Shown: positions 23,174-41,485, numbered from the stretch's first letter. The stretch: DNA of 64,000 nt from Candidatus Nanoarchaeia archaeon (GCA_035289385.1 DATDXI010000066.1:1548-65547), one strand, 5' to 3'. Made by a program: numbers and translations. Notes: generated by a model not told the origin, from the letters alone.

Positions 23174-23263
23174 GATGATATACTCGCCCAGAGAAGAGTT
23201 AATAAACGTATCTGAAAGAAATGCCAGTATAGAAATCTATTTATAATCTAGCCAGCTTGAATA

Positions 23264-23818
23264 TTGAAGATGATTCTCTCTGATAGAACAATACAGGAAT
23301 TTATTGAAAGAGGAAAGATAAAAATCCTTCCTTCAGTAGATACAAAGAATATTCGGCCAACCGGCATTAGGCTGCATCTTGGTGATGAACTGTTGATTCC
23401 TTTACCTTCACAAACTATCGATCTCTCTGCTTCTCCTGAAATACAATACAACAAAATAAATATCCATAAAGAGTGGTATATCCTTCAACCGGGAGAATTT
23501 GTTCTAGGTACAACAAAAGAGAGCATTCATTTAGCAGAGGGCATTGTTGGAAAGCTTGATGGAAGAAGCACGTTTGCGAGACTGGGCTTACTGATCCATT
23601 GTTCATCTGATACTGTTGATGGGAACCATGAGCATCCCAGAGCCATCGTATTAGAAATGAAGAATATCGGGAATTTGAATCTCAAAGTGAAATCAGGTAT
23701 TCCCATCGCCATGATCCTCTTTCATACATTAACAGAACCAATCCAGCAAAAAAGCCAAGCGCAATATGCCCATCAGACGGGTGTTCAACCGGCAAATTTA
23801 AGTGGTCAACTCAAATAA
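23264..23818 (+). CDS. dcd: dCTP deaminase (dUTPase superfamily), housekeeping type
   Basis: MILSDRTIQEFIERGKIKILP ... VLGTTKESIHL ... GKLDGRSTFARLGLLIHCSSDTVD shows the dCTP deaminase/dUTPase fold motifs. Confidence 0.8.
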   Translation: MKMILSDRTIQEFIERGKIKILPSVDTKNIRPTGIRLHLGDELLIPLPSQTIDLSASPEIQYNKINIHKEWYILQPGEFVLGTTKESIHLAEGIVGKLDGRSTFARLGLLIHCSSDTVDGNHEHPRAIVLEMKNIGNLNLKVKSGIPIAMILFHTLTEPIQQKSQAQYAHQTGVQPANLSGQLK

Positions 23819-25040
23819 ATGCATCTCTTTTCAGATCCTTTTCATGAACATCCAACGCATAAAATACAAAGACATTGAACAGCTTCCTCAGTTTCTCGGT
23901 AAAGCCAATTTCAAACAGCACTTTCAAGGCTCTTCTCCTGCTCCGTTTATCGGCCGGTTTGGCTATCCTAAAGTGAATATCGGCTTTCTCTCTCCCCAAT
24001 TATCGGGAGATACATCCTATTACGATGCCCCCAAAGATTGGAGTCAACAAAACGCTTCCATCACCAATATCGCTTCCTTAAGATATGGCTTAGTTAATTC
24101 CAGAACGCAAAATAGCGTGAAAGATCTTTCCAACTCTAGCAGGTTTTTAGAGATCATCCAAGAAGTGGGCATGGCTTCAAAGCCAGTTGAATTAGAAGTC
24201 AGCTTGAACAAGGTGCCTCGGCTTGATGTAAAGATGGAAAAGGAAGTTGCTCCCTTTGGTCCTGCTTCAGGATTACAAAAAGCGAGAATTACGGCTAATG
24301 CCAAGGTAGATTCTCGTGTGGAGAGAGTTGTCTCTGATACGGACTTAAAAGCAGCTCCAGGAATCATTAGCTTATATCAAAAAGGATTTACGGAACATTT
24401 TCTGGCAAAATTGCTCTCTGTCGGCAATACAGGATTGAAGGAAAACCGAAAGTTAGTTCCGACGAGATGGTCAATAACAGCCGTTGATGATACGCTGGGG
24501 AAAACCATGATCAAGGAAATAAAAGATTATCCTCTTGGTGATTATCAAGCCTATTTTGGCGGATCATGGGGGAACTATTATCTTATCCTCTGTTTCCCTC
24601 AAGTTTGGGAATATGAATTGTTTGAGTCCTACGTTAACTATCAGATCAACCCTTGGAGCAAAAAAGGATATTTCTATTCTACGGACTATGAGAGTTATGA
24701 AGGAAGAAAAACATATGCTGAAGAGACGGCAGGGGGATATTATGCTAACCGTTTAGCCGTTGTAGAAAAATTGAAGGAGATCAAGCGCCAAAGTTCCGTT
24801 TTAACGCTACGTTTTATCACGTCCGAATATAACATTCCGTTGGGTGTATGGGTCTGTCGGGAAGCGAGCAGAAAATCGTTAGCAGAAAAGCCGCTCACGT
24901 TTTCTTCCCAAGAACTGATGCTGAGTTATGCTCAAGCCCTTATCCAGAAGAAGTTTGGCTTTGACCTTACCATATTATTGAAAGAATCAAAGCTGTTAAG
25001 GGAGAAGAAGGAACAGAAGAGGTTGGGAGAATATTGTTAA
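23802..25040 (+). CDS. Conserved hypothetical protein (possibly archaeal COG1602/Nre-like; family assignment unverified)
   Basis: Long ORF of 412 aa. The real start is probably M14 (MNIQRIKY...), overlapping the dcd stop. Confidence 0.45.
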   Translation: MVNSNKCISFQILFMNIQRIKYKDIEQLPQFLGKANFKQHFQGSSPAPFIGRFGYPKVNIGFLSPQLSGDTSYYDAPKDWSQQNASITNIASLRYGLVNSRTQNSVKDLSNSSRFLEIIQEVGMASKPVELEVSLNKVPRLDVKMEKEVAPFGPASGLQKARITANAKVDSRVERVVSDTDLKAAPGIISLYQKGFTEHFLAKLLSVGNTGLKENRKLVPTRWSITAVDDTLGKTMIKEIKDYPLGDYQAYFGGSWGNYYLILCFPQVWEYELFESYVNYQINPWSKKGYFYSTDYESYEGRKTYAEETAGGYYANRLAVVEKLKEIKRQSSVLTLRFITSEYNIPLGVWVCREASRKSLAEKPLTFSSQELMLSYAQALIQKKFGFDLTILLKESKLLREKKEQKRLGEYC

Positions 25041-26769: not shown

Positions 26770-26878
26770 TTTAGTGGATTAATAAGTTTAAGTTTATTAA
26801 GATTATGGTTGTTGAAGCGGAGAAGATTTGCTTTGGTGGAGAGAATTTGCTTTTGTGCTGTCTAAATCATAAAAAGAC

Positions 26879-27226
26879 TTAAGAAATTTTTGGCAAAGCA
26901 TCCATTACTTCTTGCAATCGTCGTTGATAATAATCGCTGCGAACGTGGCTGCCATAGGTGGTAATAACACTTAACGCGAGTGGAAGGTCTTGTCCTTTTA
27001 CCGCTAAGGCTGCGGCACTAACGATTAATGCTTGATAGAATTCGAGGTGACGCCGCTCAGGGGGATATGCTGCTAGGGCAGTTTTCTCCTTTTCCGCAGC
27101 TTGAGCATATAACTCTCGTGCAGCTCTGGGATTAGTATGAAGCTCTCGTTCTGCTCTCAGCGCTAAATCCTCGGATTCTTCATGATTCTTTCCCCATAAG
27201 CCCTGACTGTTTAATTGGCCAAACAT
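26879..27226 (-). CDS. Hypothetical protein
   Basis: ORF only, 115 aa. Confidence 0.35.
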   Translation of the reverse strand: MFGQLNSQGLWGKNHEESEDLALRAERELHTNPRAARELYAQAAEKEKTALAAYPPERRHLEFYQALIVSAAALAVKGQDLPLALSVITTYGSHVRSDYYQRRLQEVMDALPKIS

Positions 27227-27280
27227 AGTTCTTTCACCTCATCTTCATTCCTAACCTCGTAACAACCTCAGAAAAAAACG

Positions 27281-27992: not shown

Positions 27993-28703
27993 CTAAAATT
28001 CAGCAAGGCTTTTCTGCCGTTTCTTGATGGATATTATTTCGCTTATCTTCAGAAAATCCTGTTTCATCTGCTCGAACAGCTCTGGATTTCGGCCAGAGTA
28101 TAAATACGATGCCGGATGAATGACTGGTATGACTTTACTACCATTCTGATAATCAAATACTTTTCCCCGGAGAGAGCTTATGCCTTTCTTTCCCAAGATA
28201 CGCTCGGTAGCAAAATTTCCGATGGTGACGATCACTTTTGGCTGCATGATTTTTAGTAATTGATCCAACCGCTCACGGCAGTTATTGACTTCTTCTGCTG
28301 TCGGATTGCGATTATCTTCCGGCCGGCAGAGAATAGTGTTGGTGATGAAGATGTCTTCTCGTGCCAAGTTGATGGTAGCGAGCAATTGGTCCAATATTTT
28401 TCCAGACATGCCGCAGAAGGGGATGCCTTTCTGGTCTTCTGATTTCCCTGGAGCTTCCCCTATCAGCAAGACATCTGCCTTTTCGTTGCCAACACCGAAA
28501 ACAACTTGTGTCCTTGACTTGCATAATTCTGGACAGCGCTGGCAATGAAGGTATTCTTGTTTCAATGCTGGAATAGATGGGGCGGCCATACCATGAAAAA
28601 ACAGACGGGATTTATTAAATTTGGGATGGTAAAAACAGAGGTTGATTTTAGGATGGTGAATAAGAGGAATTTCTCTGGCAAACAATTTTAAATAAACCCT
28701 CAA
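27993..28703 (-). CDS. Uracil-DNA glycosylase, family 4 (real start probably the internal Met at about 28589)
   Basis: CQRCPELCKSRTQVVFGVGNEKADVLLIGEAPG...GIPFCGMSGKILD...HPA shows the family-4 UDG motifs (GEAPG, Fe-S Cys). Confidence 0.8.
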   Translation of the reverse strand: MRVYLKLFAREIPLIHHPKINLCFYHPKFNKSRLFFHGMAAPSIPALKQEYLHCQRCPELCKSRTQVVFGVGNEKADVLLIGEAPGKSEDQKGIPFCGMSGKILDQLLATINLAREDIFITNTILCRPEDNRNPTAEEVNNCRERLDQLLKIMQPKVIVTIGNFATERILGKKGISSLRGKVFDYQNGSKVIPVIHPASYLYSGRNPELFEQMKQDFLKISEIISIKKRQKSLAEF

Positions 28704-28714
28704 ACAAGAGCATC

Positions 28715-29314
28715 ATGTGGCAAGAGATAAAAACTGGCAATGAACGAGTTATCGTTTATCAATTACAAGATTATTTTCCAGAAGGTGTATCTCGTGCAGG
28801 ATTTTCTTGTAGGATGTTTGGTTCTCGTGATGTTGATAATCAAACTCCAATTTGGATGCAAAGAAGCAATCCGGCAAAATTAGATGCCATCGTTGATCAT
28901 GAAGAAATAAAGTATAGGGTGGGAGTTGAGTTTTATCATAGAAATTTATTGGAGCGGGAAGCATTAGCTGAACAACAGAGGTTTCTTAGGCAGGGGTATG
29001 TTCTGGGAGAACGTCCTCCGGAAGATGATATATCCTTCACAGCTCGCAATCTGAGGGAGATCATTGACAACATCCAGCTGGCTCGTGATAGTTATTGGCT
29101 TCGCTTTCTGCCATGCCAGCGAACTCAAAGACGAGGTGCTAGAGAATCCAGAGCCGATCGCCCACTGGAGAATAAAGAGATAGAGCTTCTTCTTCCTTCC
29201 ATCAGAGCAATTATTAAAACTTTGGAAGGTGTTCCATTACGAGAGCCGTTTAGCTCTCCAGCGTATTATTTAGGATTAGTCACTTCTTTGATGGATAAGC
29301 ATGGGCTTGAATGA
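28715..29314 (+). CDS. Hypothetical protein
   Basis: ORF only, 199 aa. Confidence 0.35.
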   Translation: MWQEIKTGNERVIVYQLQDYFPEGVSRAGFSCRMFGSRDVDNQTPIWMQRSNPAKLDAIVDHEEIKYRVGVEFYHRNLLEREALAEQQRFLRQGYVLGERPPEDDISFTARNLREIIDNIQLARDSYWLRFLPCQRTQRRGARESRADRPLENKEIELLLPSIRAIIKTLEGVPLREPFSSPAYYLGLVTSLMDKHGLE

Positions 29315-29373
29315 AAGAAGCATCAGCTTTCAAGCATTAAATTGTCCTATACCTGATTTTTTAGGATTCTCTT

Positions 29374-30084
29374 TTATGATTTTCTTAAAGAATAATCAAC
29401 TGCGCATTGGACTATTATTTCCGTAGTATCAAATAATTTCACGTCGGTATGAGTCTGGTTGATGGCTAGTGGTATCTCTGTACAGCCCATGACGATGGCT
29501 TCCGCCCCTTGGTTCACATAATCTCTGGCAATATCTTTTAACAAAATAATATCTTCCGTTTTCTGATTCCCTCCCATAACCCGTTCAATAACATGATTTA
29601 ATATTTTTTGCTGTTCACTATTTGGTGAAATTAGTTTGAGATTAGAATCAGCAAAGCGCTTTTGATACAGCTTCAGCTTGTTGGTGCTTTCAGAGGAGAA
29701 AAGCCCCACTTTTTTATATCCATATTTCAGAACTCTTTTTTTTGTTTCCTCAATGATATTAAATATAGGAACGTTAACTGCTGACTGCATCTCTGGATAA
29801 TACGAATGAACAGTGTTACAGGCGATAATGATGAGATCAGACCCAGCTGATTCTAATTTTCTTACACCATCTATCAATTGCTTTTTAACAAGCTCTTCAT
29901 CGACTATCCCCGTTTCATCAAAACCAGCGAGAGGTAAGCTATAAATAATGATCGGTGGGTAATCCACATCTTGTACGGCACCATACTTCTGTTGGGCATA
30001 TTTTATTATTTTTGCATACAGATTAGATGACGCAACAGGGCCCATGCCACCTAATACTCCTATTGTTTTCTTTTTAGTAGCCAT
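29374..30084 (-). CDS. Aspartate/glutamate racemase family protein (likely aspartate racemase)
   Basis: IGVLGGMGPVASSNLY ... IACNTVH ... GCTEIPLA: the two catalytic-Cys regions of Asp/Glu racemases. Confidence 0.75.
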   Translation of the reverse strand: MATKKKTIGVLGGMGPVASSNLYAKIIKYAQQKYGAVQDVDYPPIIIYSLPLAGFDETGIVDEELVKKQLIDGVRKLESAGSDLIIIACNTVHSYYPEMQSAVNVPIFNIIEETKKRVLKYGYKKVGLFSSESTNKLKLYQKRFADSNLKLISPNSEQQKILNHVIERVMGGNQKTEDIILLKDIARDYVNQGAEAIVMGCTEIPLAINQTHTDVKLFDTTEIIVQCAVDYSLRKS

Positions 30085-30157
30085 ATTTCTGCTATATTGT
30101 AAAGAAATTTATAAATTATCTTCTCTTAAATAAGCAAGTTAGAATATACTTTATATC

Positions 30158-31060
30158 CTACACCTTCTTAAAAGTATAACACGTTTTCTTTTCTAAGTTC
30201 CACAGCTGTTTCCAGCCGGTATCACCAACTAAGAAATCGATCTCTTTAACTCCCAGAGAAAGCGCTTTCTTGATCATCTCTGCTACAAGAACTTTACCGA
30301 GATTTTTATGAGCAAGATTATAGCCGCTATTCATGACGTAACAGACGTTCTTGTAGACAGCAGAAAAGATAACACCTTCAACCATCCCATCGATCTCTAT
30401 ATTTAGTGTCACCAGCATCTTCTTCTGATGAAGATATTTAGCAAGATTACTTACTCGCTCCCGGAAAACAGGGTCGTGGTAATCTGACTCTGTGCCGAAA
30501 CGCTCAACATTGAAGTCAAACAGCTTTTCCAGATGGTCGAGCGGTGAAAAAGAGATCTGATACTTCAGGTCCAGCATCTTTTTTAAGTCATATAATAAGT
30601 TCTTCCTATGTTTCTTGGAAAAGCCCTGCAGGTGCTGGTGGAAGTCTGTTGTCAAAAGAACGTATCGAAAATCCTGTTCAGGAAAATATTTTTTAGCTTC
30701 CGGATACATCATCAGCACTTTCTCGACAGTATCGCCGTTGAGGTCATAGAGCATCGTTCCCTGTGGAATCTTTTCAAGGAATAATGGAAATTCTTCTAAA
30801 GGGAACCAGAAGGAAAAATTTTCTACAAAGGTGCTGCCAAAAAAAGTATATCTTTTTTCATGAGGCTCATAGCTTAACGGCAGGAAGCCATTGCTGCTGT
30901 AGATAAAATAAGGCTGCGCATCTTTCTCTTGAAGGAGCAGGGCAACATCCCATAGTTCCCAAAGTTTTCCCCCTGGAGAATATTTTTTCCACAGCTTTTT
31001 TCCCAGAGCTAAGCTTTTGCTTACTTTTATCGTGTCTGCTGTTTTGGCAACCATCTTCAC
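30158..31060 (-). CDS. FemAB-like / BioF2-like GNAT-fold (Acetyltransf_6) protein
   Basis: C-terminal region LGVKEIDFLVGDTGWKQLWNLEKKTCY fits the BioF2-like acetyltransferase (FemAB-related) family end motif (G..YK..W). Confidence 0.5.
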   Translation of the reverse strand: MKMVAKTADTIKVSKSLALGKKLWKKYSPGGKLWELWDVALLLQEKDAQPYFIYSSNGFLPLSYEPHEKRYTFFGSTFVENFSFWFPLEEFPLFLEKIPQGTMLYDLNGDTVEKVLMMYPEAKKYFPEQDFRYVLLTTDFHQHLQGFSKKHRKNLLYDLKKMLDLKYQISFSPLDHLEKLFDFNVERFGTESDYHDPVFRERVSNLAKYLHQKKMLVTLNIEIDGMVEGVIFSAVYKNVCYVMNSGYNLAHKNLGKVLVAEMIKKALSLGVKEIDFLVGDTGWKQLWNLEKKTCYTFKKV

Positions 31061-31113
31061 CTATTGATCATCCGCTTAGAATTATCTTCGAGAATCACAC
31101 TTCTATTCCTTTT

Positions 31114-32469
31114 TCAATTCTCTCGTAGAAATCCCCACGTATGAAGCTTATCGCTGTCTTCAACCCAGCGCTCACCTATGTCATCCCTATAATACATGTG
31201 GGGGATATTGATGAGCTTGATGCGGTTATAGGCCTGCTGCCGAGCTTGAGCCATGGATTGACCACAGCCACAGACGACTAAGGCTACACCGGTGTTTCCC
31301 GTGATGATCCATTCGCCGTTCTGCAGCTTGATATCTTCAAAGTGCACTCCTTCAACCGGCTTTTTGAAATAGACGATAGAATCTTTAGACTTTACTTCAA
31401 ATGTTTCCGGGTCGTTGAAGGGGTAGGGTGGAACAACAATCCTTATTCCTACCTGAAACCCTGCTTTGACTTTCAGCTGAGGTTTTTTTCCTTGCGCTAA
31501 TTCCCATAAGAAATCTCCCATAGGCGTGATCATCCCTTCCTGCTGGATAAATACACAGGGGTAGCCGAACCTGCTCGTAAATTCTAAGGGGTAGATGCCT
31601 TTGCTGTTGACGATGCAGTTTAAGTCAATATAACCACAGTAGCCTTCCGTCGCTAGTGTCGCTTCCATCTTTTTTAGCGTCTGGTTGAATAACCTGTTGG
31701 GCTCTGACCAAAACATCGATGTTCCCATCTCTCCGGTAGAAGGCCCTAAATTTCCGGGAAGAAGTTTTTTGTGCTCAAAGTTGATGTTGATAGGGGAAAT
31801 GAACTCTTTTCCGTTAAAGAAAACTCCTACGGCTATTTCGACACCAGAAATCTTTTTCTGCAGCTGGAACTCGGGAATCTTTTTTGACCAGGCTTTGCGG
31901 TAATCGTTCATGACTTGGATGACATCACGGCCATCCTCCTCTTCGCCAATGAATAACAAGCCTTTCAAGTTTGCTGCTTCACCACATGGCTTTAAGACGT
32001 ATTTTCCAGGATGCTCCTGCACAAAAGCAATGGCTTCTTCAAAATTGTCAAATGTTTTTGAGGGCAAGATGGGTATGCCATGGCGTTTCAATTCCTGCTG
32101 GCCAAAGTCTCGGTCATCTTCCAGCCGATCAGTATATGGAGACCCTCCCACGACTAATTTTCCGGCCTTCCTCAGCTTTTCAGCTTTTTCTCCCATCCCT
32201 AAAGTATCATCAAAGACAATGACATCAGCCCAGTCTACTTCTGCTTCCCAGTCATCGATGATATCTAAGAAGCCTTGTCCAACTTCCTTCCTTTCCGGGC
32301 TTTTGATGTAGAACTTTACTTCATGGCCTTCTAATTTTATCCGCCAGGCCGTATCAGGGATAAGGCTGTCATAGGTGACAAAAAGAAATTTTTTAGGGTC
32401 TTTGGTGGTTTCGTGGTGGATATCTTCTATCACCACTTTTGCCTTTCCGTTTGTTTGCGATTCAACCAT
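31114..32469 (-). CDS. PurD-like ATP-grasp ligase (phosphoribosylamine-glycine ligase homolog, divergent)
   Basis: Three-domain PurD layout with LGPSTGEMGTSMF (compare the PurD signature GPNTGGMGAY) and C-terminal YYRDDIG (PurD YRxDIG). Confidence 0.6.
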   Translation of the reverse strand: MVESQTNGKAKVVIEDIHHETTKDPKKFLFVTYDSLIPDTAWRIKLEGHEVKFYIKSPERKEVGQGFLDIIDDWEAEVDWADVIVFDDTLGMGEKAEKLRKAGKLVVGGSPYTDRLEDDRDFGQQELKRHGIPILPSKTFDNFEEAIAFVQEHPGKYVLKPCGEAANLKGLLFIGEEEDGRDVIQVMNDYRKAWSKKIPEFQLQKKISGVEIAVGVFFNGKEFISPININFEHKKLLPGNLGPSTGEMGTSMFWSEPNRLFNQTLKKMEATLATEGYCGYIDLNCIVNSKGIYPLEFTSRFGYPCVFIQQEGMITPMGDFLWELAQGKKPQLKVKAGFQVGIRIVVPPYPFNDPETFEVKSKDSIVYFKKPVEGVHFEDIKLQNGEWIITGNTGVALVVCGCGQSMAQARQQAYNRIKLINIPHMYYRDDIGERWVEDSDKLHTWGFLREN

Positions 32470-32563
32470 TCGATCGTTCAGTGTTGGAGTAAAGAGCTAC
32501 CATTTAAACTTTTCTAGTTCTGGAGGCGTAGTTACTTTTAGCCTTTTGAAAAATTTTCGTTGT

Positions 32564-33943: not shown

Positions 33944-33989
33944 TTTAAGCTTAATTTAAGCAGGGTATTTATAAATATTGCGGTTTGGA

Positions 33990-34173
33990 GTACGTATTTA
34001 GTTCAATAAAGAAAATAGTGGCAGGTCGGAAAATCTAGCCTGACTTTCTTGATAAGCAATGATTGAGCTTTGATTTTAAGCTAAAAGTCAGGCAACTAAA
34101 CAGGTCTTACGAAGCTCTCAATATATTTTCCCTCTTGACCTTGCCACTATTTTTAACCGAACTAAATACGTAC
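33990..34173. mobile_element. MITE-like element copy A (184 bp) with 15-bp TIR GTACGTATTTAGTTC and candidate 8-bp TSD GGTTTGGA
   Basis: The left end is GTACGTATTTAGTTCAATAAAGAAAATAGTGGCAGGTC. The right end is GACCTTGCCACTATTTTTAACCGAACTAAATACGTAC, which is its reverse complement apart from a few mismatches. The flanking GGTTTGGA occurs at 33982-33989 and 34174-34181. The interior contains the inverted repeat AGCCTGACTTT/AAAGTCAGGC. Confidence 0.6.
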
Positions 34174-34230
34174 GGTTTGGATCGCTGGGTTTCCCTTAAG
34201 CTATGGTCTTAGGAGTTATACTTGCCCGAT

Positions 34231-34752
34231 TTAACTGCTTCTTATCCCTCCCAGAATGATGCTCCTTACTATTCTCCACAGATAGTCTTGGTCTGTTTTG
34301 AGGGGATCAACATCCCAAGAGTTGAGATATTCTTCGAGATGTCTGATATGGCTTTCAAAGTTAGGGGTGGTATGGTGGGCATACTGTACTCCCATCAGCC
34401 CAGGCTTTTGCTGAAGCGCTCTTTCCATGATTGCAGGTGGGTATCTCAACCATTCTTTTTCAGTCTGTGGACGAATCCCCACCGGTTTAATATCTCCTCT
34501 TGCTAAATTATAGAATTGTGGGAGTTCATCGATCCAGTATCTCCTAAGAAATTTACCCATGGGTGTTATTCTTGGATCTGATAATGGATGCCCATGGGAA
34601 TCAAAACCATCAACTAATTCGACAAGCCTTTGGTCAGCATCTCTGTCCATCGTTCTAAATTTATAGATATCAATAGGTCTTCCATCTTCTCCTAAACATT
34701 TCTTTACATATATGATGTCCCCAACCATCGTATCGCCGTTCAGTTTCCGCAA
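34231..34752 (-). CDS. Bacterial sugar transferase (Bac_transf / polyprenyl-phosphate hexose-1-phosphate transferase) catalytic domain, no TM segment
   Basis: IDIYKFRTMDRDADQ and KFLRRYWIDELPQFYNLARGDIKPVGIRP match the Bac_transf signature (YKFRSM...LR.s.lDELPQl.NVl.G.MSlVGPRP). Confidence 0.6.
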   Translation of the reverse strand: MRKLNGDTMVGDIIYVKKCLGEDGRPIDIYKFRTMDRDADQRLVELVDGFDSHGHPLSDPRITPMGKFLRRYWIDELPQFYNLARGDIKPVGIRPQTEKEWLRYPPAIMERALQQKPGLMGVQYAHHTTPNFESHIRHLEEYLNSWDVDPLKTDQDYLWRIVRSIILGGIRSS

Positions 34753-37277: not shown

Positions 37278-37480
37278 CTTTTATTTCTCCCTTTTTTGCT
37301 GTGTTGTTTTCTCTGTGAATTTTAGTTGTCCCTTTTCTTGGGGATAGAGCTGCTGTTCAAACTTCTTTTTTCCGAAAAATATCCAATATAACGTCAAATT
37401 AGCGATGACTATCAAAAACAAGACTAATGCTGTTTCCATACGGAGAGATAGAGCAGAATTACTTATAAATTATTCGTTAC

Positions 37481-38746
37481 CTACCGGAGAAGGTGTGTTC
37501 TTCGTCCATACGTTTCTAGAATCGTTTTTTCTTGTTCGGGATCCATTTCATAACGGCCTTTCTCTACTTTTCTGACACCTATTCTCTGCATAAATCCAGT
37601 AAATGATCCTAAGGGGATGTCATATGTTGATGTGATTTCTGTGAACGTCCAGACTTTAGCAAGGGTGCCTGATCCGTTTCCTTCTGAAGATACATTATCT
37701 GCTAGGTTATCTGAGGGAGAGTTTTTCACTATTTTTTTTTTCCCCAGACCTAAGCGGTTGATCCTATCGTAAAGGCTCTTTTTGCTAATGCCAAGGCGCT
37801 TGGCGGCCATATTTTTATTCCCTTTGGTATTTGCCAAAGCGGTGAGAATACATGAACGCTCAGTCTCTTTCAAAATGTCGTAGATGGTTCTTTCCTGTCT
37901 TCTTTCGGTTGTTTCTGTAGTTTGAGATAAAGATGTCCAATCATAATTGATGTCCTCTGCCTGAATTTCACCTGCTCCTCGTAGGATGATAGCTCTCTCC
38001 ACGACATTCTCCAAATCTCTTACATTGCCACCCCAGTCATAGAGCTTCAGCTTTTCCTGTGCTGCTGGAGAGATGCCCGTTACTTCTATTCCATGATCCT
38101 GGGCATATCTTTCTATAATATATCTAGCTATCAGGGGGACATCATCAATCCTGGCGCGCAAGGGAGGAAGTTCTAGAGGAAAAGCATTGAGGCGATAAAA
38201 TAGGTCTTGCCGAAAAGTTCCTTTACTCATTTCGTCTTCAAGATTGCGGTTTGTCGCGGCGAGAATTCTTACATTGACAGGAACAGGGGTATTGCTTCCT
38301 ACCGGGAAAACTACGCGCTGCTGAATCACTTGAAGCAGCTTTGCCTGTAAATGGGGGGACATTTCTCCAATTTCATCAAGAAGGATAGTCCCTCCTTCAG
38401 CAGCTTGAAAATATCCCTTGTAGTCTTTTATTGCGCCAGTAAATGATCCTTTAGCGTGACCAAAAAGCTGAGATTCTAAAACTCCTTCCGCAATTCCTGG
38501 ACAATTTACGGTAAAGAATGGTTTTGCTCCACGGCCATTTCTGTTGTTGTAATGAAGAGCAGCAGCAACCAATCCTTTTCCCGTTCCTGTCTCACCGGTA
38601 ATCAAAACGTTGGTTGGCATGTCCACAAGGCGATTGATAAAACCATAGAGTTGCAGCATTTCAGGAGTTTGACCAACAATAGGCCCTTGGCCATGTTCTA
38701 TCATATATCGGCCAGTCTCTGGAGAATAATGTCTTATTTCTGCCAT
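37481..38746 (-). CDS. Sigma-54-interaction-domain AAA+ transcriptional activator (bacterial enhancer-binding-protein type) with Fis-type HTH and ~85-aa C-terminal extension; no N-terminal sensor domain
   Basis: Walker A GETGTGKGLVAAALH, the GAFTGA-equivalent loop GHAKGSFTGAIKD, Walker B GGTILLDEIGEM, an arginine-finger region RILAATNRNLEDEMSKGTFRQDLFYRLN, and an HTH block ILTALANTKGNKNMAAKRLGISKKSLYDRI. Confidence 0.75.
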   Translation of the reverse strand: MAEIRHYSPETGRYMIEHGQGPIVGQTPEMLQLYGFINRLVDMPTNVLITGETGTGKGLVAAALHYNNRNGRGAKPFFTVNCPGIAEGVLESQLFGHAKGSFTGAIKDYKGYFQAAEGGTILLDEIGEMSPHLQAKLLQVIQQRVVFPVGSNTPVPVNVRILAATNRNLEDEMSKGTFRQDLFYRLNAFPLELPPLRARIDDVPLIARYIIERYAQDHGIEVTGISPAAQEKLKLYDWGGNVRDLENVVERAIILRGAGEIQAEDINYDWTSLSQTTETTERRQERTIYDILKETERSCILTALANTKGNKNMAAKRLGISKKSLYDRINRLGLGKKKIVKNSPSDNLADNVSSEGNGSGTLAKVWTFTEITSTYDIPLGSFTGFMQRIGVRKVEKGRYEMDPEQEKTILETYGRRTHLLR

Positions 38747-38790
38747 CTTATAGCTAGAAAATCACTCATTTATAAATGTGATTGCAACAA

Positions 38791-39011
38791 GTATGTATTA
38801 AGTTCTACAACAAAAATAGTGGCAGGTCGGAAAATTCAGCGAGACTTAATGTAAGAAGTAGCTTGATGAGTGATAGTTTAAGCAAATGGTCTCGCAACTA
38901 GCCTTGTTTTACAAAGTTCTTAATGAATTTTCCCTCTTGACGTTGACCTGAGCGAGCAAGAAGCGAGCTCTTGCATTTCAGACCACTATTTTGACCGAAC
39001 TTAATACATAC
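38791..39011. mobile_element. MITE-like element copy B (221 bp) with perfect 15-bp TIR GTATGTATTAAGTTC and 8-bp TSD TGCAACAA
   Basis: The left end GTATGTATTAAGTTC (38791-38805) and the right end GAACTTAATACATAC (38997-39011) are exact reverse complements. TGCAACAA flanks the element at 38783-38790 and 39012-39019. The interior is homologous to copies A and C (AAAATAGTGGCAGGTCGGAAAAT ... GCAACTAGCCTTGTTTTACAAAG ... TTTTCCCTCTTGAC). Confidence 0.65.
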
Positions 39012-39157
39012 TGCAACAATCTTGTCGGAGAAGGAAATGAAGTTTGCATTCTCTTTTCATCACTAAAACATTAAGGATAATCCTACCTATTCTACCACCA
39101 AAAACTTTAATAAGCATTTGGCAATTACTGAGGTAGTATAGGGGGTCGGCATAAAAG

Positions 39158-41377: not shown

Positions 41378-41485
41378 GCACCGGTAGTATAGTGGTTAGT
41401 ATGTCGGCCTTCCATATAGGAAGTGTCTTTTGAGGCTCTTCTGCGAAGGGAGCCGATCACCCGGGTTCGAATCCCGGCCGGTGCA
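41378..41485 (+). tRNA. tRNA-Gly (anticodon UCC) with a 36-nt intron after position 37/38
   Basis: Acceptor GCACCGG/CCGGTGC, D arm GTAT-AGTGGTTA-GTAT, anticodon stem TCGGC/GCCGA and loop CT-TCC-A, T arm CCGGG-TTCGAAT-CCCGG, discriminator A, no encoded CCA. The intron is 41415-41450 and contains GGAAG complementary to the anticodon-loop CTTCC (bulge-helix-bulge style). Confidence 0.7.

Follow-up and report, generated by a model that had tools for sequence, protein, structure and literature searches.

The ATP-grasp protein and its place in the cluster

A cluster of three genes in a 64,000-nucleotide stretch of DNA from a Candidatus Nanoarchaeia archaeon (GCA_035289385.1, DATDXI010000066.1:1548-65547; the whole of this stretch is referred to below as the window) codes for a PurD-like ATP-grasp protein, a tandem GNAT-fold protein and a homolog of aspartate racemase. 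In the original prediction, these genes had been read as a single pathway, with a D-amino acid made by the racemase going on to the ligase. Our analysis shows that the cluster so described is largely coincidental, and that its ATP-grasp protein belongs to a widespread and systematically misannotated family, which on its sequence features is derived from PurD and is not a glycinamide ribonucleotide (GAR) synthetase. The explanation that we favor, and to which we would assign about an even chance, is that the ATP-grasp and GNAT genes form a two-gene module of an amide ligase and an N-acyltransferase, lying beside an unrelated, inserted racemase cassette.

The ATP-grasp protein is matched by the GARS_A and GARS_C domains of Pfam, and GARS_N (PF02844) gave no match to it at E <= 0.01. 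Against the purD equivalog model TIGR00877 it scores 114.5 bits, far under the cut-off of 288, while homologs from Chondrinema and from a phage score 101 and 89 bits respectively. This profile-based classification had been put forward as a check on the proposal that a PurD-like enzyme was repurposed outside purine biosynthesis, and each sequence test that was run, this one included, upheld the proposal. Solved PurD structures score no more than 86 bits and align from residue ~97 onward, with 2yw2, 2xcl and 1gso covering residues ~97-443 at E 1e-23 to 1e-28; in an alignment with the Salmonella PurD, the N-terminal GNGGREHA loop corresponds to YD-SLIPDT in the window protein. No purine-pathway Pfam family was found in the loci with listed genes, and no recurrent purine neighbor emerged in 80 loci.

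We projected the residues of Aquifex PurD, whose roles have been described (PMC8880213), through a profile alignment onto the window protein. The ATP/Mg residues E100, K143, E192 and K214 are identical (E117, K160, E211 and K234 in the window), K103 and E185 show conservative replacements (R120 and Q204), and E283 of the E-F-N motif of PurD corresponds to E296; of these, K160, E211, K234 and E296 show no variation when the family is aligned. The arginine that contacts the glycine carboxylate is retained (R287, R300 in the window), whereas the other glycine ligands are altered (D212 to E232, and E292 to C305, a position occupied by T, S or C in the family), as are two further signature positions (N285 to T298 and D290 to Y303). 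The R-x-G-D-P-E signature of PurD accordingly reads R-F-G-Y-P-C in the window and R-F-G-Y-P-[TSC] across the family. Because the ATP/Mg residues are kept while the PurD substrate signature is lost, we infer that the protein would be an active acyl-phosphate-forming ligase, with a carboxylate other than glycine and an amine other than phosphoribosylamine as its predicted substrates. On the whole, the family resembles PurD in its homologous A, B and C domains, the DHK/EHK loop, the arginine for the substrate carboxylate and a C-terminal YR-DIG motif, but differs from it in an extra C-terminal tail (RW-x-DSDKLH-x-WG), in the presence of inteins and in having a phage branch.

Phyletic distribution and sequence constraint

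The best 120 database relatives are all 68-99% identical to the window protein, and nearly all are labelled phosphoribosylamine--glycine ligase; the named sources among them are Woesearchaeota, Aenigmarchaeota, Nanoarchaeota, Peregrinibacteria, Patescibacteria and one Spirochaetes bin. A search with two family-specific peptide patterns recovered the family in 404 GTDB species. Members from Burkholderiales contigs with 66-69% GC and from a 3.2-Mb Balneola chromosome are 64-66% identical to the product of the window gene, which has 45% GC, and overall family identity stands at 64-78% across DPANN archaea, bacteria of the Candidate Phyla Radiation (CPR) and Burkholderiales. The family is more conserved between archaea and bacteria than expected for vertical inheritance. 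Recent transfer as the sole cause of this high identity was set aside, as the 64-66% identity kept in genomes of 66-69% GC argues for strong constraint too. The window gene and its counterpart in a sibling strain differ by 82 synonymous and 5 non-synonymous codons, which points to strong purifying selection.

Representatives clustered at 50% identity were searched exhaustively with HMMER, and 549 of these clusters matched at E <= 1e-30. Among them the top 150 all score above 196 bits, and the complete proteins within these match over nearly the full length, N domain included, at 31-56% identity. Inteins are present in 12 of the 150 best representatives, inserted either between GEMG and T250 or directly after EFT298, and these two sites coincide with the two most conserved active-site loops of the family. 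Intein carriers in the family include P0032, P0253, P0256, P0258 and P0263, some of the inteins having LAGLIDADG domains, and P0258 has both inteins.

In cultured organisms the family resides on plasmids or megaplasmids, namely in Halarchaeum sp. CBA1220 (52% identity), Chondrinema litorale (49%), Roseomonas haemaphysalidis (35%) and Sphingomonas daechungensis (34%), where PGAP labels it "GARS C domain-containing protein" or "hypothetical", never PurD. The Roseomonas member lies on plasmid p546-2 (locus L183, 3738-9395) beside a type III polyketide synthase, a methyltransferase, an FAD monooxygenase and an aminotransferase, a neighborhood that looks like a small-molecule biosynthetic cluster. 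In Sphingomonas daechungensis (L184, 6950-8597) a gene for a SET (protein-lysine methyltransferase) domain overlaps convergently with the ATP-grasp gene, which is apparently split into two coding sequences, and a weak C-terminal SET-domain fusion is seen in P0321, a distant member of the family. A Woesearchaeota metagenome-assembled genome has two tandem paralogs, one of them 45% identical, right after a fusion of glucosamine-6-phosphate deaminase (NagB) with a BshB-like PIG-L deacetylase (L181, 4373-7562), and also holds a 69% family member (L031). No common neighbor theme was seen in the non-CPR bacterial loci from Balneola, Burkholderiales and a 59% GC bin, in which the neighbors are respectively DapA with a DapD-like hexapeptide transferase, MlaE with MscS, and LysM with DUF2868.

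A full-text literature search found no paper describing this family. Viral "purD" auxiliary genes have been said to derive from non-CPR phyla (PMC12647753), and those genes appear to be true purD.

The GNAT-fold protein and its recurrent adjacency to the ATP-grasp gene

The second gene of the cluster encodes a protein that matches PF13480 (Acetyltransf_6) with E 5.8e-16, and for which no NCBIfam match, no match to PDB sequences and no match to the Pfam FemAB or NCBIfam Fem models was found. Its AlphaFold2 model has a predicted local distance difference test score (pLDDT) of 92 and a pTM of 0.87. In Foldseek searches this model matches FemX (E 8.5e-10) and the synthase domain of MprF (E 1.5e-9), and the best matches by TM-score are Sbb17/Sba18 (TMq 0.65-0.66); these top matches have a probability of 1.00 and span TMq 0.57-0.66 at a sequence identity of 10-13%. 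The Sbb17/Sba18 entries describe peptide synthases that depend on aminoacyl-tRNA, and two of them have the amino-sugar intermediate streptothrisamine in the structure; the acetyl-CoA-dependent tandem GNATs VipF and clavulanate Orf14 (2wpw, E 1e-6) are weaker structural matches. The initial description of this protein as FemAB-like is therefore apt at the level of the fold, a tandem GNAT with FemX-like topology, but does not extend to the level of sequence, where no Fem model recognizes it. Small GNAT partners of the ATP-grasp gene in other genomes show the canonical acetyl-CoA motif YQGKGYG (Q-x-x-G-x-G). The donor of the window protein could be either an aminoacyl-tRNA or acetyl-CoA.

To examine the neighborhood across the family, all open reading frames (ORFs) within 4 kb were clustered in 82 non-redundant loci. 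In ~19-20 of the 80 GTDB loci, a raw count, the next gene on the 3' side of the ATP-grasp gene has the same orientation and encodes a GNAT-fold protein; where any co-oriented gene begins <=200 nt away on that side, about half of the loci have a GNAT there. The two genes are separated by 4-58 nt or overlap. The partners belong to at least three unrelated types. Homologs of the window protein of ~300 aa with the Acetyltransf_6 domain occur directly 3' in 8 other genomes, among them L009 (two tandem copies), L026, L046, L057, L064, L066 and L075, and further copies are cut by the contig end in L056 and divergent on the 5' side in L061. An Acetyltransf_6 type of ~240 aa is found in L059, L060 and L086, while genes of ~147-175 aa with the Acetyltransf_1 domain are found in L016, L023, L034, L040, L048, L050, L073 and L074, and fused into the upstream gene in L017. 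The cultured Chondrinema litorale adds a fourth GNAT type, which overlaps the ATP-grasp gene by 16 nt. When the ATP-grasp proteins are placed in a neighbor-joining tree, large and small GNAT partners turn up at scattered points between partner-less lineages, which indicates that the association arose repeatedly and was not inherited as one arrangement. No conserved neighbor besides the GNAT was detected among the clustered loci. The GNAT is thus likely to be a functional partner of the ATP-grasp protein, and this part of the original prediction, the link between the two genes, recurs in other genomes.

A proposed ligase and acyltransferase module

Our proposal is built around what was observed: the identity of the domains, the negative outcome of the PurD tests, how the family is distributed and conserved, the recurrent GNAT adjacency and the polymorphism of the racemase cassette described below. 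The ATP-grasp enzyme would bind ATP and Mg, activate a carboxylate as an acyl phosphate, our best guess being that of an amino acid other than glycine, and join it to an amine other than phosphoribosylamine. Its GNAT-fold partner would then acylate the new free amine, drawing on acetyl-CoA or aminoacyl-tRNA. That the enzymes are catalytically competent, which reaction comes first and what the two substrates are is in each case our inference. The preferred acceptor would be an amino sugar or a glycan-type amine, with a protein as the main alternative. An amino sugar is hinted at because the acceptor of PurD itself is an amino-sugar phosphate, because the structures closest to the GNAT by TM-score, Sbb17/Sba18, bind streptothrisamine, and because the 45% paralog follows the NagB and BshB-like deacetylase fusion. 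On the 3' side of this module, a separate 1.53-kb cassette, recently inserted, carries a stand-alone racemase, apparently with its own promoter, along with a further gene, ORF199.

Several points weigh against this proposal. The hints at an amino-sugar acceptor are weak, as they come from single loci and from analogy. The AlphaFold2 model of the ATP-grasp protein, made from a 12-sequence alignment, reached a pLDDT of 46, because the homologs in that alignment are too alike. An adjacent GNAT is absent from ~75% of the ATP-grasp loci, so the ligase can work without a neighboring partner, and the GNAT neighbors were counted with hidden Markov models built from those same neighbors and with no genome-wide background. 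A fusion to portal and MuF domains and the position among internal virion proteins in phages, and the SET-domain and Asp/Asn-hydroxylase-like genes associated with the family, point toward a protein substrate. Finally, the racemase has landed exactly beside the module and in the same orientation, and it may have been functionally recruited in this one lineage.

The viral branch of the ATP-grasp family

A scan of IMG/VR identified 124 viral contigs with relatives of the ATP-grasp protein, nearly all of them full-length, which are 28-40% identical to it and retain the family motifs NFEHKKL and PLEFTSRxGWP. In 47 of 80 viral loci the gene comes right after genes for large proteins presumed to be internal to the virion, one such virion-protein family having an SLT domain, and it stands immediately 5' of tail-fiber-like genes in 24 of the 80. 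Small GNAT genes are present in 12 viral modules, and genes resembling Asp/Asn beta-hydroxylases likewise in 12. The GenBank phage MW202796 (Manatee Spring) has the same gene (33.5% identity), with a GNAT ~4 kb upstream. A 65-kb phage contig (L190, 2818-6528, protein P0309) encodes, right after the terminase, a 1236-aa ORF in which portal, ATP-grasp and Mu-F (SPP1 gp7-like head) domains are fused, an architecture that would imply an enzyme built into the virion.

The racemase gene lies in a recently inserted cassette

The racemase is recognized by PF01177 (Asp_Glu_race, E 9.5e-34) and by TIGR00035 (150.8 bits, above the cut-off of 93.1), scores 166 bits against the CuyB model, under its cut-off of 190, and retains both catalytic cysteines, Cys89 in the motif ACNT and Cys201 in GCTE. 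By these features it is a pyridoxal-phosphate-independent, two-cysteine racemase of the Asp-racemase subfamily, with Asp, Glu and cysteate as candidate substrates.

Contigs of three sibling strains (L001-L003), which are about 91% identical in DNA to the window, align collinearly with it by blastn; the identity ranges over 87-98%, with ~90-93% around the cluster, and their ATP-grasp protein is 99% identical to that of the window. In these contigs, the part of the window from 30165 to 28634 is represented by only 24 bp, situated between the GNAT stop and the region upstream of UDG. The gene order ATP-grasp, GNAT, racemase, ORF199 and UDG was found in four further assemblies, and its occurrence in independent assemblies argues that the arrangement in the window is not an assembly artifact. 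Both cassette-bearing and cassette-free variants are present in samples ERZ4903072 and JGI 3300025317; this, taken together with the window order in the further assemblies, establishes a real population polymorphism. Neither the racemase nor ORF199 was found by tblastn in any of 86 other ATP-grasp loci. When the surroundings of the 1.53-kb cassette were examined for terminal repeats and other signs of a mobile element, only short chance-level matches were seen. ORF199 has no match in Pfam, NCBIfam, PHROGs or PADLOC, and the ATP-grasp and GNAT proteins have none in PHROGs or PADLOC; on these grounds, a reading of the locus as a known defense system was dropped.

The racemase family shows 69-87% identity across DPANN and CPR, and the ATP-grasp gene was not found at the racemase loci examined elsewhere (AR9-type L087-L091, L092, L188 and L189). 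In the archaeon AR9 the racemase homolog is a stand-alone gene after L11, and in another DPANN genome it also occurs alone. In a Patescibacteria locus (L092, 4161-6696) the homolog follows Peptidase_S51 and Peptidase_M15 genes, and in a Gracilibacteria locus (L189, 1-6996) it lies between an argininosuccinate synthase (ArgG) / Lyase_1 (fumarate-lyase-family) gene and adenylosuccinate synthase (PurA). ArgG and PurA consume aspartate, and the flanking peptidases act on peptides containing Asp and D-Ala. These two contexts suggest aspartate salvage, and the racemase probably interconverts D- and L-aspartate for the general amino-acid economy. Since the element TTTATAAA lies ~28 nt before the ATG, in agreement with archaeal promoter geometry, the gene may have a promoter of its own, which suggests a leaderless or short-leader transcript.

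The cassette is thus a recent insertion and not a member of a conserved cluster. Conservation of the gene context in relatives had been set beforehand as the check by which the original prediction could be refuted; with the racemase missing both from the sibling strains and from the 86 other ATP-grasp loci, the genes do not co-occur in related genomes, and a conserved three-gene pathway that provides the ligase with D-amino acid from the racemase is not borne out.

Alternative interpretations

Among the other explanations, the one that best withstands the evidence is that the ATP-grasp protein is a protein-modifying amino-acid ligase, acting in the manner of RimK or tubulin-tyrosine ligase, with the GNAT acting on the same target protein as an acetyltransferase or aminoacyl transferase, and the phage enzyme being packaged in the virion to act on virion or host proteins. 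The fusion of portal, ATP-grasp and Mu-F domains encoded right after the terminase, the placement of the viral genes after internal virion proteins or before tail-fiber-like genes, and the small GNAT and beta-hydroxylase-like genes of the viral modules are all in line with this, as are the single SET-domain fusion and the single SET-domain neighbor. RimK-like ATP-grasp genes abut the family gene in L030 and L082, and a partial one lies 208 nt 5' of it in L023. The window gene itself sits amid ribosomal and RNA-polymerase genes, but such neighbors are common by chance in small genomes. Against a protein substrate, the characterized close relatives, i.e. PurD, all use small substrates, the arginine for the small glycine carboxylate is conserved, and the Roseomonas homolog belongs to an apparent secondary-metabolite cluster; moreover, the viral branch is just 28-40% identical and may differ in substrate. 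We therefore consider this alternative unlikely, though one to be taken seriously. A broader and more speculative possibility, which we judge rather unlikely, is that the PurD-like ATP-grasp protein is a host-interaction enzyme common to two kinds of obligate dependents, phages and ultra-small episymbionts. In phages it would be incorporated in the virion or packaged with it, in line with the portal, ATP-grasp and MuF fusion and with a fixed place where the block of internal virion proteins ends, and in DPANN and CPR cells it is retained at 64-78% identity across domains. In both, it would attach an amino acid to a conserved protein or to a glycan of the cell surface, and the GNAT, SET and hydroxylase partners would add further marks.

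That the three genes are mere neighbors, the ATP-grasp protein working alone and the adjacency arising from the abundance of GNATs in compact genomes, would account for the roughly three quarters of loci without an adjacent GNAT, for the origin of the partners from unrelated GNAT families and for the lack of any other conserved neighbor. This appears quite unlikely in view of the share of GNATs, about half, among the loci with a closely spaced co-oriented gene on the 3' side, the short gaps or overlaps (16 nt in Chondrinema), and the recurrence of the association in archaea, bacteria and phages.

A three-gene pathway confined to one lineage, in which the racemase provides D-Asp, the ATP-grasp enzyme attaches it to an acceptor in the envelope or to a metabolite and the FemX-like protein then lengthens what is formed, is very unlikely. 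The co-orientation of the genes with gaps of 53-73 bp, the maintenance of the cassette precisely 3' of the module in four assemblies, the intact pair of catalytic cysteines, and the known operon of a racemase and an ATP-grasp D-Asp ligase in Enterococcus and Lactococcus speak for it. However, sibling strains with a 99%-identical ATP-grasp protein have no racemase, nor does any of the 86 other loci; a TATA-like box precedes the racemase ATG by 28 nt; the racemase stands alone in AR9, another DPANN genome and CPR genomes; and the ATP-grasp family is spread far more widely than any such arrangement. Lastly, that the ATP-grasp protein is a genuine if divergent GAR synthetase, as its public annotation as phosphoribosylamine--glycine ligase and the A-B-C architecture, YR-DIG motif and ATP-binding residues in common with PurD might suggest, is extremely improbable given a score of 114 bits against an equivalog cut-off of 288, the loss of the GGREH loop and the G-D-P-E signature, the lack of purine genes in loci with listed gene families, the plasmid-borne or megaplasmid-borne members of free-living cultured bacteria and a haloarchaeon that PGAP does not name PurD, the genes in phage virion modules, and the reports that many DPANN are without de novo purine synthesis (PMC8091004, PMC7414124, PMC8421398).

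Layout of the locus and other features of the window

ORF calls agree with the initial description of three co-oriented genes and their coordinates (Table 1), and Pfam matches agree with the domain assignments made for all three. The cluster is flanked on its 5' side by genes for S27ae, S24e, Spt4 and RpoE' and on its 3' side by those for UDG, L21e and RpoF, consistent with the ribosomal and RNA-polymerase neighborhood noted earlier. A scan of the locus for sigma-70 promoters and terminators was uninformative, the consensus being bacterial and the host archaeal.

Table 1. Features of the ATP-grasp locus, in window coordinates
Feature	Position	Strand	Evidence and remarks
Aspartate-type racemase, 236 aa	29374..30084	-	PF01177 and TIGR00035
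Tandem (dupli-) GNAT protein, 298-300 aa	30158..31060	-	PF13480; start is GTG at 31060 or ATG at 31054
PurD-derived ATP-grasp ligase (predicted), 451 aa	31114..32469	-	GARS_A and GARS_C
ORF199, 199 aa	28715..29314	+	Convergent with the racemase, in the same insertion; called as a gene in four assemblies
1.53-kb indel polymorphism (racemase and ORF199)	28635..30164		Flanked by the GNAT stop codon and the UDG promoter region; blastn against L001-L003
TTTATAAA, TATA-box-like element	30108..30115	-	~28 nt 5' of the racemase ATG; read from sequence
TTTAAAT, TATA-box-like element	32502..32508	-	~36 nt 5' of the ATP-grasp ATG; putative promoter element, read from sequence

Going by the source names of its closest proteins, the window derives from a DPANN archaeon of Nanoarchaeia/Woesearchaeota type. 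It also encodes an archaeal signal recognition particle RNA. On the plus strand, an Rfam tRNA match of 108 nt at 41378-41485 (56.7 bits), which was not called by ARAGORN, is probably an intron-containing archaeal tRNA. Four further short indels with collinear flanks distinguish the window from the sibling strains, at 33989-34744, 37474-39080, 26813-27273 and 23223-23844. The first of these harbors a truncated bacterial sugar transferase (Bac_transf, 34231-34752) and the third a 115-aa ORF (26879-27226). The second contains a 421-aa gene on the minus strand (37481-38746), present in L003 and not in L001 or L002, whose L003 counterpart has the Sigma54_activat, AAA_5 and HTH_8 domains of a bacterial-type enhancer-binding protein; to our knowledge, a DPANN archaeon should have no sigma-54.

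Implications

In DPANN and CPR, the genomes in which this family goes under the label phosphoribosylamine--glycine ligase number at least in the hundreds, an annotation that is corrected here. Under the purD label, such organisms may be taken to make purines in part, and for them dependence on the host for nucleotides is a central question. With its conservation, its inteins in active-site loops, its phage-virion branch and a GNAT as sole recurrent partner, the family lends itself well to biochemical study. Once known, the substrate of the ATP-grasp enzyme would extend the very limited set of metabolic steps in DPANN and CPR by one, and if the protein proved to be a host-interaction enzyme, the family would represent a new class of ATP-grasp modification system. 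The strains with and without the cassette, occurring in the same samples, offer a natural comparison for the study of gene gain in DPANN.

Comparison with known systems

The succession of PurD and PurN follows the same logic of ligation and subsequent acylation as that proposed for the ATP-grasp and GNAT module. The closest model for the pathway envisaged by the original prediction is the Racfm/Aslfm system of Enterococcus faecium and Lactococcus, which consists of an aspartate racemase and an ATP-grasp D-aspartate ligase and thus likewise pairs a racemase gene with an ATP-grasp ligase gene. It differs in that the window racemase is strain-variable and unlinked to the ligase in all other genomes examined, and in that the window ligase is of the PurD type; furthermore, the host of the window is an archaeon and as such not expected to have peptidoglycan.

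In mycothiol synthesis, MshB, MshC and MshD act in turn: an amino sugar is deacetylated, an amino acid is joined to its amine at the expense of ATP, and a tandem GNAT acetylates that amino acid. By analogy with this series and with BshB of the bacillithiol pathway, the family paralog that is preceded, at a single locus, by the NagB and BshB-like deacetylase fusion might take part in comparable chemistry, although MshC is a ligase resembling class-I aminoacyl-tRNA synthetases and not an ATP-grasp enzyme. FemX/FemAB, MprF and Sbb17/Sba18 share the dupli-GNAT fold with the window GNAT (E 1e-9 to 1e-10, TMq 0.57-0.66); the latter, however, is a PF13480 protein with only 10-13% identity to them, and its place in other genomes is taken by an ordinary GNAT of the acetyl-CoA type.

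A further parallel is found in the clavulanate cluster, where the ATP-grasp glycine ligase GcaS (Orf17), followed by an acetylation, gives N-acetylglycyl-clavaminate, the tandem GNAT Orf14 of the same cluster being a candidate for the acetylation step (PMC8788787). Here too, an ATP-grasp enzyme adds an amino acid to an amine, the new amino group is N-acetylated and a tandem GNAT is encoded in the cluster, but the setting is an actinomycete secondary-metabolite pathway, and GcaS is likened to the window ligase by its reported chemistry and not by its sequence. On the whole, the ATP-grasp family is an uncharacterized one, and the module is a variant within the amide-forming systems built from ATP-grasp and GNAT proteins.

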